From: an uncultured delta proteobacterium
Lineage (GTDB): Bacteria; Desulfobacterota; Binatia; UBA9968
Length of the DNA: 64,000 bases
Direction of reading: 5' to 3'
Assembly: GCA_963816145.1 (NCBI GenBank)
Contig: CAWFJP010000003.1
Span: 320,001 to 384,000, forward strand
Position 1 is the first letter of the stretch. The number at the start of each line of letters is the position of its first letter. This document shows, in pieces, positions 3,973 to 11,275 of this stretch. The translations under genes and the position numbers were made by a program. The notes under the pieces are model-generated. The model ran no database searches. It had not been told where the DNA came from and saw only the letters and a list, made by a program, of their open reading frames with translations.

Positions 3973-5403
3973 TCAACCAATCCCAGCCAGTTCCTTGGCC
4001 AATCTAACGTACGGACTTAAATCGTAGGCGCCCACGAGCCGCTGTTTGTTGGTGGCCAGGCTGGCGACGTTGAACATCTCGAACAAGAGCTGCCGCGAGC
4101 CGAACGAGTCGCAGGCGTACTCCCAGGCGAGCTTCAACATGCGAAACATTTCTTCGGTGCGATCGTTCTCGCCGACGAAATAGCGCTGGAGGTGGGGGCC
4201 GACCTCTGGATGGTTCATATCGGCTTGGCTCGGCGACATCAGGATACCTGAGCCACACAACTCTCGGATCAGCTGCATCATCTGCGGGTAACCCTCGATC
4301 GAAAAGATGCGCGCTGCCTGGGCCGGTGTCCAGTTGGGCAGGGTTAGGCCCGATGGAGAGCGCACCGGGTTCATCTCAGCAACTTGAATAAATGCTCTCA
4401 TCGTCTCCAGGTAGATGATCGCGTCGGCCAGGGACAGTTGCACATGGGGCTGTTTGAAAGTACCGAGATACTCCGCCATCGAGGCGCAGATGCCGAGCAG
4501 CACCTCCGCCTTGACCGCCAGCCGAACCAGAACATACCAAGGTCCGATGCCCATGGCCCCTTGGAAGAGCCGCGCGTAGAGACCAGGGTCCTCGGGATGG
4601 GATTGGCGCAAATAGAAGACACGTTCCCAAGGTATAAACACATTGTCGAACAGCACCATGGCGTCCATCTCGTCCCAGTGCGGACTCAGCGGATGGTCCT
4701 CGGGGTTGCGCGCCGTCATGGATTCGCGGCAGACGAGCTGGATACCTTGGGCGTTCACCGGCACAGCGAAGTAAACGACCTCATCGGGCTGTAGGTTGGG
4801 TCTGGGTTGGGTGAGGCAGAGAATTTCATTGGCGTAGGGTGCCTGGGTTCCCACGCCTTTGGCCCCGCGCACGACGATGCCGTCGGCCCGTCTCTCCACC
4901 ACCTTCAAGAATTCTTGCTTGGATTCGGGATGGCTTCGGTGGTGAAACGGATCGTTGAAAATGGTGGCGATGCTCAAATCGTTTTCGCGGCAATACTCGA
5001 AATAGCGCGTAACATTCTTCGCGAAATCCGGATTCTCCTGGCCGAAGATATCGCGGCTATCGTGCAGCCCTAAAATCACCGTCGCCAAATGCTGCGGCAG
5101 ACGCGCCGCCACGCCACCGGCCCGCCGCACGAGGAACTCGTACATCTTGCGCTGACGGATCAAATCTTCGACCGATTGGGGCAATAGATAAGCTAAACTC
5201 ACCCGCTCGCCCGTCGCCGGCGAAGCCATGGTCAGCAGCTCCTGATGGGCTGGATCATGTTGTAGATCAAAAACCCCGGCAACGCTGCGCGCGCAGCCTG
5301 CCAAACTCGGATGCGCGGTCACGTCCACCAGTTGACCTTGCAGCCACACGCGCCGCCCATCCCTCAAGCTTTGTAGATATTGCTCTCCTCGACGTATTGG
5401 CAT
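3973..5403 (-). CDS. 4-hydroxyphenylacetate 3-monooxygenase oxygenase-like (HpaB family)
   Basis: GEQYLQSLRDGRRVW, DGIVVRGAK, HPLS..WDEMDAMVLFDNVFIPWERVF, FGSRQLLFE. Confidence 0.88.
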   Translation of the reverse strand: MPIRRGEQYLQSLRDGRRVWLQGQLVDVTAHPSLAGCARSVAGVFDLQHDPAHQELLTMASPATGERVSLAYLLPQSVEDLIRQRKMYEFLVRRAGGVAARLPQHLATVILGLHDSRDIFGQENPDFAKNVTRYFEYCRENDLSIATIFNDPFHHRSHPESKQEFLKVVERRADGIVVRGAKGVGTQAPYANEILCLTQPRPNLQPDEVVYFAVPVNAQGIQLVCRESMTARNPEDHPLSPHWDEMDAMVLFDNVFIPWERVFYLRQSHPEDPGLYARLFQGAMGIGPWYVLVRLAVKAEVLLGICASMAEYLGTFKQPHVQLSLADAIIYLETMRAFIQVAEMNPVRSPSGLTLPNWTPAQAARIFSIEGYPQMMQLIRELCGSGILMSPSQADMNHPEVGPHLQRYFVGENDRTEEMFRMLKLAWEYACDSFGSRQLLFEMFNVASLATNKQRLVGAYDLSPYVRLAKELAGIG

Positions 5404-5514: not shown

Positions 5515-5609
5515 TTTGGGCAAAACGGAGGCCAGTTGGAATGTCGGCTCGCACTATGAAAATGAGTTATTGAAAACCTGCTCGCTGGCTAAAACGGATA
5601 CCCCACGGA

Positions 5610-5672
5610 ATTTAACGGATCGGCGGGTGAGCCGTGGACCGCAGGGCCATCGGTTCCATCCGCTGGTTCGAC
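5610..5672 (-). mobile_element. attC-like integron cassette recombination site (no intI in window)
   Basis: Minus strand GTCGAAC-CAGCG-GATGGAAC-CGA-TGGCCCTGCGGTCCA-CG-GCTCACC-CGCCGATCC-GTTAAAT: R''/L''/L'/R' layout with two unpaired bases and R' matching GTTRRRY. Confidence 0.6.
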
Positions 5673-5684
5673 CGCCGCAGGCGG

Positions 5685-5721
5685 GCGCAACCAGCGTGGC
5701 TCACCCGCCGACCCGTTCGCA
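5685..5721 (+). repeat. Inverted, internally deleted copy of the attC-like site
   Basis: GCGCAAC-CAGCG-TG-GCTCACCCGCCGACCC-GTTCGCA; 5698-5717 is 19/20 complementary to 5614-5633. Confidence 0.6.
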
Positions 5722-5778
5722 CGACCTTCTGCGGTCGGGCGAACGTATTACGTTTATACCCGCACAGCAGCACCTAGC

Positions 5779-6700
5779 TTAGTTTATTCGTAGAGCGTCG
5801 GCCAGCGCTTCCAACTGCTCGGTGTAGCGGCAGACTGGATTCAAAATCAGATGGTTCACGCCAGTCTCAGCCAGCTCCTCGATCTTGCCACGTACATCTT
5901 CCGGCGTGCCGTAGAACCCCGACTGCGCCGCTCCCTTGGTGTTGCGATAAACGGTCATGAACCAGCGCTCGAGTTCGGCGCGTGCCACATCGGCGTGTTC
6001 GTGCACGGACAGGAAAACGCGCTTCGACAGCGGATAGCTTGCCGGATCGCGGCCGGCGCGTTCCAGCTCCTCTTTCATCAGCGCGATGTCGCGGCGAAAC
6101 GCTTCGAAGCTGCCACCGCCCGCTCCCATCCAGCCGTCGGCGATGGCTGCGGCGCGCCGAATCGCGTCGGGGTGAGTGCCGCCGAGCCAGATCGGCGGAC
6201 CGGGCTGCTGTACCGGCTTTACACCGAGCTTCGCTCCCGTGAGCTGAAAGATGGTGCCGCTGTAATTGACTTCCGAGTCTATCCAAAGACGTCTGATCAG
6301 CTCCACACTCTCGCGAAACCGCGCCACGCGCCGCTCGCTGGGGATCTGAAACTCGGCGTAGTGACTGCTTCGTCCCAAGCCTGCCCCGAGAATCGCCCGG
6401 CCGCCGCTCAAGTAATCCAGATGTCGCAATCTGGTGCGCAACGTGGATCGGGTGGTGCAATGGCAGCACCATCACCGACACTCCCAGTCGAATCTTCGTC
6501 GTCACGGCCGCGGCATAAGTCAGCGCCACTACCGAGTCGAGGCAAAAGACATGGTCCAGGGTATTCTCGGTCACCCAAAGGTCGCGGAAGCCGAGCTCTT
6601 CAGCGCGCTGAGCGACCCGGCGCACCGCGGCGATATCGATTGGTTCCGGAGAACGATGCGGCAACGAAAAGCCGAAAGTTATTTTATCGATGAGAGCCAT
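5779..6700 (-). CDS. LLM-class (luciferase-like) flavin/F420 oxidoreductase, +1 frameshift near 6421
   Basis: N-half (AEELGFRDLWVTE, AAVTTKIRLG, HPIHVAHQIAT) joins C-half (LDYLSGGRAILGAGLG, KPVQQPGPPIWLGG, DGWM) by removing one base. Confidence 0.85.
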
Positions 6701-6856: not shown

Positions 6857-7252
6857 TCACTTGCCGAAGTCTTCGGCCCTCAGCTCGATCGGCTTGCCAT
6901 GCGGCGTGCGATGCATGGCGTGCTCCCAGGCTTGGAAATGGTCGGTGAGCGCCTGCGCGGAGGTCGCGCCTTTTTCGGCGACCATGCGTTCGAGGGTGGC
7001 GAGCCAGTGGTGGTAGTAGGTATCGCCGGTGTCGGGATCGCCGGCGGCCTGGGCTTTCTTGATTTCCTCGCCAAGCATCGCGGACCACTCGGGCCAGGCG
7101 AACAGACCTTTTTCGTGTAGCGCCAGCGCCATCGCGAATGCATGGGCTTCCCAGGGCGCGCGAAAGACCGGACCGGCGGCATCGCGCGGGATGCCCGGAA
7201 CCGCTTCGGCGGCTTTGCGTGCAGCTTCAGGCTCGATCAACTTTTCAGACAT
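6857..7252 (-). CDS. Nitrile hydratase accessory/activator protein (P14K-like)
   Basis: PVFRAPWEAHAFAMALAL, YYHHWLATLE, TPHGKPIEL; directly downstream of the beta subunit. Confidence 0.9.
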   Translation of the reverse strand: MSEKLIEPEAARKAAEAVPGIPRDAAGPVFRAPWEAHAFAMALALHEKGLFAWPEWSAMLGEEIKKAQAAGDPDTGDTYYHHWLATLERMVAEKGATSAQALTDHFQAWEHAMHRTPHGKPIELRAEDFGK

Positions 7253-11158: not shown

Positions 11159-11180
11159 AACCTATTTCTGTAGAAACACA

Positions 11181-11260
11181 TGGAACCTTTGAAACCACTG
11201 GAACGATTGGAACAAGCCACGACCGTGGTTCGAATCGTTCCAAAAGTTCCAGCGGTTCCA
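11181..11260. repeat. Symmetric 4+4 inverted array of 9-bp-period TGGAAC/GTTCCA units
   Basis: TG(G/A)AAC at 11181, 11190, 11199, 11208; central hairpin; GTTC(C/G)A at 11228, 11237, 11246, 11255. Confidence 0.88.
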
Positions 11261-11275
11261 ATCGTTGTCAATCCG

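Follow-up and report, generated by a model that had tools for sequence, protein, structure and literature searches.

A solo 128-nt non-coding unit beside hpaB as a probable integron cassette of uncultured Binatia

The window, i.e. the whole stretch of 64,000 nucleotides analysed here, carries at positions 5616..5743 of the minus strand an ORF-less unit of 128 nt, which is very likely a solo copy of a non-coding integron cassette mobilised by integron integrases; its crossover points are 5744|5743 upstream and 5616|5615 downstream. Carriers of its cassette family are the integrons of a single family of uncultured soil bacteria within the Binatia. An earlier sequence-only reading had described the element as ORF-less, integron-derived and based on attC, which is borne out by a canonical attC within the unit and by copies in cassette arrays; all sequence features listed in that reading are present where it had placed them. 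Its array of three micro-cassettes has to be given up: four copies in the genome itself and 88 public copies represent one 128-nt unit that moves whole, and the internal GTT/AAC pairs, which had been taken for cassette borders, are stems of this unit.

Borders and copies of the unit

A search of the unit's own genome (7.8 Mb, 31 contigs), which had been proposed together with the sequence-only reading, located the stretch 5613-5745 at three further places with an identity of 95-98%. The four copies (one in the window, two on contig C15, and one on contig C30) are 128-133 nt long; three of the four lie in cassette arrays, and identity ends at identical bases in all of them. Read on the minus strand, the unit starts with TTCGCC straight after a G and ends with ...CCCG; the bases that follow are of the TTAGG type in the arrays and TTAAAT in the window. 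G|TT starts and TTAGG-type continuations agree with the core-site consensus and are typical of integron crossovers. The preceding attC finishes exactly at the first G|TT of the unit at C15:194592 and C30:523561; at C15:200827, the unit starts 12 nt past the GTT of the preceding attC. Each of the three array copies is followed by another cassette, and removal of the unit leaves a core site of the GTTAGG type. The TTCGCC start is complementary to GTCGAAC and to GCGAAC at six of seven positions, and start and second box covary, GTTCAC occurring with GTGAAC. Public contigs end at 5613/5617 and at 5746/5748, i.e. at both ends of the unit, and one public run contains variants with a different continuation after 5617 and before 5748. 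The short contigs of four public DNA runs contained no joints indicative of an empty site or an excised circle.

Two integron integrases are encoded on C15; they scored 468 and 466 bits against TIGR02249 (cut-off 265), are full length and stop-free, and are 73.7% identical to each other. Each intI is followed, on the same strand, by an attI-like region in which TATAC motifs are repeated and, beyond it, by an array, a layout described as the 'inverted integrase group' in PMC3575428. The arrays consist of small minus-strand ORFs with hairpins of the classical attC type between them, which are composed of a 7-nt R'', two unpaired bases, 6 bp, a bulge, about 6 bp, and a further bulge. Both C15 copies of the unit are in the second array, whereas the C30 copy belongs to a short, integrase-less array with an attI-like start. 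Both intI and related attC sites, on whose existence the sequence-only reading depended, are thus found in this genome, and they are also found in its relatives. As to the surroundings, C15:180300-203300 (L193, L194) comprises two complete integrons, 17 kb apart, with each intI transcribed towards the cassettes; a partial intI-like fragment is located within the second array (C15:191761-192156, plus strand). The C30 array (C30:522300-524300, L003) consists of the attI-like start, a cassette with a 210-aa ORF, the micro-cassette, and two pairs of small ORFs (91+91 aa and 62+108 aa), which look toxin-antitoxin-like by eye.

For the detection of attC sites, we used a home-made covariance model, named R1, which is based on 24 ordinary attC sites and a structure set by hand; 17 of the 24 training rows are neighbours of the unit, and seven originate from its own genome and the related genome G014. 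In C15:176000-204000, R1 identified 20 sites at E < 0.01, all on the minus strand; three of these are training rows and two are units. A canonical attC was seen by R1 in every copy of the unit examined. Scores were 18.5-27.8 bits for five other copies that were matched and 19-61 bits for ordinary attC sites. The window copy reached 12.9 bits, which corresponds to an E-value of 0.74 in a 135-kb search and of 0.0019 in a 351-nt search; the best other scores in the 64-kb window, 10.8 and 10.3 bits, are barely below this value. The covariance search with this home-made model did align a canonical site in the window, but with a weak score, which counts against the cassette reading. In addition, we used a simple heuristic, which looks for AAC...GTT with paired arms. 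Its weak thresholds cause a high background; it is useful in arrays and blind to sites whose R box pairing comprises only 3 bp. The neighbour counts given below are from a constrained version of this heuristic.

The 23-nt motif of the leader hairpin was found at 12 loci of a genome collection (MAGs labelled Binatia, 'Deltaproteobacteria' or 'Eisenbacteria'), and the identical 23-mer in at least 143 metagenome stretches. Among the matches listed, 80 loci were fetched, and deduplication resulted in 88 distinct copies. GTTCGCA, GTTCGCC or GTTCACC directly precedes the leader hairpin in 79 of the 88 copies, and both arms of the long stem are present in 52 of the 81 copies with enough sequence. The lengths of these 52 units are 128 nt (30 cases), 129 nt (9), 127 nt (1), 130 nt (1), and 55-95 nt (11), the short units being internal deletions between short direct repeats. 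In units of 55-59 nt (L052, L056, L068, L085, L089, L090, L104, L119, and others), the canonical attC is gone and the repeats are GCGG/CGCGG. Since the same deletion occurs in different flanks, either it is recurrent or the short form is still mobile. The 7-mer after the unit, which agrees with the core site, consists of GTT, followed by A (40 of 51 cases), G (39 of 51), any base, and C (40 of 51).

An attC-like hairpin is anchored exactly at the upstream border in 51 of 83 testable copies vs 5 of 184 control anchors. Judged by the bulge arm, 44 of these 51 neighbours have the same polarity as the unit, one has the opposite polarity, and six are ties. In L099, L080 and L065, the unit follows the 3' end of an intI at a distance of 155-233 nt; by eye, the flanks in L099 and L080 are attI-like, which suggests that the unit occupies the position of the first cassette. 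Several more copies abut attI-like sequence by eye, without a formal count. A 'TATTAAGTGA' flank, which ends with ...CACTTAATA before the crossover, is common to L064, L065, L078, L088, L113, L119, L123 and L125; among these eight copies, the end of an intI is nearby in L065 only. With up to two mismatches, the motif occurs in eight of 401 sampled genomes of the class, all of which belong to the window's own family: besides the genome studied here, these are seven of 63 others of this family, as compared to none of 337 genomes in other families. Six of the nine unit-bearing genomes have an intI above the cut-off; three unit-bearing MAGs, 91-96% complete, have none above it, which is another point against the cassette reading.

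Competing folds of the unit

The unit is composed of a 63-nt attC and, preceding it, a 65-nt leader; the latter begins with TTCGCC and comprises a hairpin of 30 nt as well as a partial, inverted copy of an attC arm. The consensus boxes of attC sites are RYYYAAC and GTTRRRY. According to R1 and to an alignment of copies, the attC in the window (5610..5672, minus strand) has canonical geometry: R'' GTCGAAC (5666-5672), a 2-nt spacer, 6 bp, a bulged G, 6 bp, a bulged A, 6 bp, a 3-nt loop, and a hybrid R' GTTAAAT (5610-5616). The same geometry is found in 16 ordinary attC sites of the own genome and G014. Model and alignment agree with two elements that the sequence-only reading had named, a full attC-like site ending in GTTAAAT and an inverted, internally deleted attC copy.

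In the leader hairpin P4 (5715..5744, minus strand, 30 nt), a second R''-like box, GCGAAC, is paired with TTCGC plus the G before it. Its inner stem comprises 5-6 bp, with a private G-to-T change in the window copy, and one G-C pair of the outer stem is replaced by A-U in 4 of 45 aligned rows (GTTCAC/GTGAAC). The inverted partial copy of the attC arm (5698..5717, minus strand) pairs with 5614-5633 and forms the long stem P1 of a rod-like fold; there is one A.C mismatch in the window copy, and compensatory changes were observed at three positions, in 14-19 of the 45 rows. The inner hairpin P3 of the rod (5661..5696, minus strand) uses as one strand 5666-5672, i.e. the R'' of the 63-nt attC. Hairpin P2 (5629..5656, minus strand), with a GCA triloop on the plus strand and a 1-nt bulge, is common to both folds, and two of its pairs are altered on both sides between two sequence types. 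A GTT...AAC hairpin lies around 5664-5691, and all three small hairpins contain CCGCAG, twice on the plus strand and once on the minus strand. Because the leader holds an inverted copy of the attC arm, a single strand can fold in two ways, as a rod or as an attC hairpin; these exclude each other, since the same bases are used. The competing folds with common bases proposed by the sequence-only reading are thereby confirmed.

Folding both strands as RNA, which had also been proposed, gave -100.3 kcal/mol for the minus strand (z -5.1) and -89.1 kcal/mol for the plus strand (z -4.6); in both cases, none of 200 shuffles was as good. The consensus rod comprises P1, the leader hairpin and a pair of inner hairpins; of its 50 base pairs, 13 are maintained through changes on both sides in the 45 aligned copies. 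For the 63-nt attC hairpin on the plus strand, 97.0% of the cells are paired in these copies, as compared to 90.8% in shuffles and 22-47% with partners slid; three of its pairs are altered on both sides between the two sequence types. The alignment (A1) includes two rows from the genomes G005 and G035, which also enter the tallies given above and whose features recur in loci of public collections, e.g. L048 and L087. Note that the complementarity of the inverted halves could come from gene conversion and not from selection on structure.

The plus strand, i.e. the bottom strand of the cassette, carries the G.T pairs of the attC. When DNA parameters were applied to the window copy and two other copies, the C30 copy being left out, the bottom strand folded as attC with -14.2 kcal/mol in the window and with -15.6 and -16.7 kcal/mol in the two others; the best fold of the top strand (-10.4 to -14.5 kcal/mol) is not the attC shape. 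The most stable fold, with about -57 to -64 kcal/mol vs about -14 for the attC fold, is a near-perfect, bulge-free rod. That the rod is far more stable is a point against the cassette reading: Bouvier et al. 2009 (PMC2727003) report that attC stems paired throughout are poor substrates in recombination assays and that real attC sites need spacer and bulges.

Two other interpretations of the stems were considered and rejected. The perfect 20-bp stem 5614-5633:5698-5717 was tried as the attC itself; it lacks spacer and bulges, and R1 aligned the canonical 63-nt attC instead. Domain V of a group II intron, as indicated by a GAGCCG...CGGTTC hairpin, had no match in Rfam; the pair that would have to serve as the wobble of the catalytic triad is unpaired in 15 of 45 copies, and this key pair is broken in the second sequence type. 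The Rfam scan at E up to 10, suggested with the sequence-only reading as one whose family match would speak against it, produced a single chance match (Scr1601, E 4.7). As a separate observation, the loop of the leader hairpin is flipped in L015 and L042 (minus), L092 and L115, with CAGA for TCTG, as if a small palindrome had been inverted; L015 is from genome G005, and L042 is the public record of that contig.

The chromosomal site beside hpaB

The element is located in a gap of 375 bp between two minus-strand monooxygenase genes. The gene of the HpaB family (3973..5403, minus strand; Pfam HpaB_N 279 bits, HpaB 175 bits) lies 212 nt downstream of the cassette. On the other side, a luciferase-like monooxygenase gene (5779..6700, minus strand) is distributed over two frames with a frameshift near 6408-6441; it is absent from the corresponding place in related genomes. 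Contigs of the public runs X1 and X5 have one base fewer at 6422 of this gene, and the frameshift may therefore be specific for the assembly or the strain. From the stop of the luciferase-like gene to the cassette extends a 34-nt spacer (5745..5778, minus strand), which contains the 'attI-like' stretch 5748-5764 and in which R1 found no attC (4.9 bits). The conserved chromosomal flank (5560..5615, minus strand) starts with TTAAAT and is common to related genomes as far as the crossover. A scan for promoters and terminators found neither kind of site inside the 128-nt unit; the single promoter-like site is located between cassette and hpaB (5514 to 5487). The ORFs across the unit (88 and 53 aa) had no Pfam match.

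A TIGR02249 profile search identified no intI on the window's contig, C3, the matches of the genome above cut-off being on C15 only, and neither the heuristic nor R1 detected further attC-like sites in the 64-kb window. For these two reasons the window copy is regarded as solo. Hairpins of repeated GGAAC/GTTCC words, which occur at 11180-11261 of the window and at C15:12209-12345, C15:204503-204587 and C30:543975-544047 of the same genome, look like a separate repeat family.

The site was compared with two related genomes, G019 and G014. The homology of the hpaB flank with both of them stops exactly at the crossover, ...TTAAC|G on the plus strand. It resumes at the stop of a nitrile hydratase accessory gene (6857-7252); the variable segment is consequently that between this gene and the hpaB flank, and the genome studied here has the micro-cassette as well as the luciferase-like gene in it. 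In G014, another attC, 60 nt long, ends at this crossover; it scored 29.1 bits with R1 and is preceded by an ORF of 498 aa (L037:265-1851); this G014 cassette is solo as well. Inspection of G019 revealed a stretch of 143 nt there that contains an attC-like hairpin. R1 found no attC beside the hpaB flank at this locus, and the attC assignment in G019 is accordingly one made by inspection alone. The presence of another cassette in G014 and of an attC-like hairpin in G019 at the same crossover points to an old, re-used attachment point and not to a random site.

About 10 nt from the crossover, the G019 flank (L025/L036) contains the 12-nt word TCTATACGGAAC, which is the repeat motif of the attI of integron 1; it runs opposite to the orientation of the cassette. 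Judged from the sequence, the site at the hpaB flank may descend from an old attI. The stretch 5748-5764, on which the sequence-only reading had based its attI call, shares 14 of its 17 bases with the real attI of integron 1 (shuffle p 0.018), at a differing distance to the crossover. Both flanks of the window copy were compared with three real attI regions, i.e. in 12 comparisons, of which this match is the one weak hit; with its differing spacing and p about 0.02 for one of 12 tests, the call remains weak. The window copy may have arrived by insertion at a genomic site of the attG type, as such sites are termed by Loot et al.; alternatively, it may have been inserted into an older attC, which was later lost.

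Proposed mechanism, alternatives and known systems

If the unit is a cassette, the integron integrases encoded elsewhere in the genome would excise it as a small circle, which would be re-inserted at the G|TT core of an attI or attC and, rarely, at a chromosomal site as in the window. The leader might act as a lock, which limits the folding of attC and hence excision. The family is tied to integrons and not to any one gene, and there is neither promoter nor terminator inside the unit; we therefore read the window copy as a passenger. It is probably without function for the host and at most provides a stable hairpin between two genes.

Rather doubtful is the further idea that the unit is a minimal selfish cassette with a rod/open toggle as a lock, which spreads among the integrons of one Binatia family. 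It would then consist of an attC and a leader antisense to its own attC arm and would be about the smallest possible integron parasite. In single-stranded DNA, the rod would hide the R and L boxes of its own attC, and the open form would recombine; the 30-nt hairpin would hide the cleavage site of the upstream neighbour's attC. Such a lock would set the rate of excision and could stabilise or insulate neighbouring cassettes. Occasionally, the unit would spread to chromosomal attachment points, e.g. upstream of hpaB.

Several findings are also compatible with a different mobile repeat (a MITE, a non-autonomous IS derivative, or an element targeting core sites), which is moved by another enzyme and is cassette-like only in looks: GTT at both ends could be a 3-bp target duplication, the best fold is the near-perfect, bulge-free rod, and attC-targeting elements exist, namely IS1111-attC and group IIC-attC introns. 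We consider this origin improbable, because the unit has neither terminal inverted repeats nor a conserved target on its upstream side, because its removal restores the GTTAGG-type core site, because it contains a canonical attC in the polarity of the array, and because the three loci 155-233 nt past the end of intI are situated where capture by the integrase places new cassettes. The 128-nt block with fixed ends, which is present in the four copies of the genome and in 39 of the 52 full public copies, is difficult to reconcile with the original proposal of the sequence-only reading, i.e. a remnant platform with attI and without intI plus three hairpin-only micro-cassettes. Internal GTT...AAC pairs are indeed present, and the upstream 17-mer does share 14 of 17 bases with a real attI; however, the sub-units were never seen moving alone, the short forms are internal deletions, and on a contig that, in the profile search, had no intI above the cut-off, the attI match is misspaced and not significant after 12 tests, which makes a platform very improbable.

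A structured RNA (sRNA, attenuator, or leader switch of the HpaB-like gene) would fit the strong folding of both strands, the two exclusive folds with common bases, and the G.U-type pairs, which favour the plus strand. We nevertheless judge it to be highly improbable. Apart from the chance match, no Rfam family was found at E up to 10, and public RNA runs contain at most 0.07 of the sampled words. Moreover, the element is absent upstream of hpaB in related genomes, which have other sequences there, and the family is found in cassette arrays and not beside one type of gene. The hpaB switch that the sequence-only reading had considered is unlikely for the same reason, the unit going with integrons and not with hpaB, and additionally because the promoter-like site lies only between unit and hpaB, i.e. 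downstream of the unit, which itself contains no terminator-like site. Membership in the REP/BIME repeats was rejected, as there are only four copies of 128-133 nt and not many dispersed palindromes of 20-40 nt.

Under the preferred reading as an integron cassette, the identity of the unit explains a puzzling structured intergenic repeat for annotation. Cassettes are usually viewed as carriers of genes; the 128-nt unit carries only a recombination site and its mirror image. Conserved and widespread as it is, it would illustrate in a clear case from nature that a cassette can be selected for self-propagation or for some influence on the array. It also lends itself, as a naturally occurring substrate, to work on the control of attC recombination by rival DNA folds. 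The solo copy and the G014 cassette show that a chromosomal attachment point remote from integrases has been used more than once. Both non-coding cassettes and solo attC sites (SALIN) have been described before; new are the very small size, the self-complementary design as a rod, and the host, Binatia. The literature searched, which is incomplete, yielded no paper on integrons in Binatia and, supplements aside, no description of a cassette so small or so self-complementary.

Among the known systems, non-coding cassettes are the closest. For Vibrio, Boucher et al. 2006 (PMC1382264) report conserved paralogous families and raise the idea of selfish elements; the gene-less Vibrio cassettes tested by Blanco et al. 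2024 (PMC11014356) are about 450-650 bp long and mostly act as promoters; and Tansirichaiya et al. 2019 (PMC6557892) describe gene-less cassettes with promoter activity in Treponema integrons. Like these, the Binatia unit is ORF-less, bounded by attC, and a member of conserved paralogous families within one lineage. It differs from the Vibrio cassettes by its length of 128 nt, by the lack of a promoter-like site in our scan, by an intI pointing towards the cassettes, and by a 65-nt leader most of which is reverse-complementary to the unit's own attC arm.

SALINs, as defined by Loot et al., consist of a CDS plus an isolated attC, and a GWT insertion motif is reported for them. In agreement with this type of element, the window attC is far from intI and other attC sites, the integrases are encoded elsewhere in the genome, and the flank of the window copy opens with TT next to a G, in keeping with the GWT motif; in contrast, the unit has no CDS, and its crossover has been re-used by another cassette in G014. 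With REP/BIME repeats, the unit has in common that it is a short, GC-rich, strongly folding intergenic repeat; it differs in having four copies in 7.8 Mb, three of them in arrays, a length of 128 nt, and fixed G|TT borders. Finally, the attC of the unit resembles the canonical attC as described in PMC2727003 with respect to the R''/R' boxes, the unpaired spacer, the bulges of the R''-L'' arm, and the better folding of the bottom strand. Unlike the canonical site, it lies within a longer perfect stem to which the cassette's own leader contributes, and the two folds compete.
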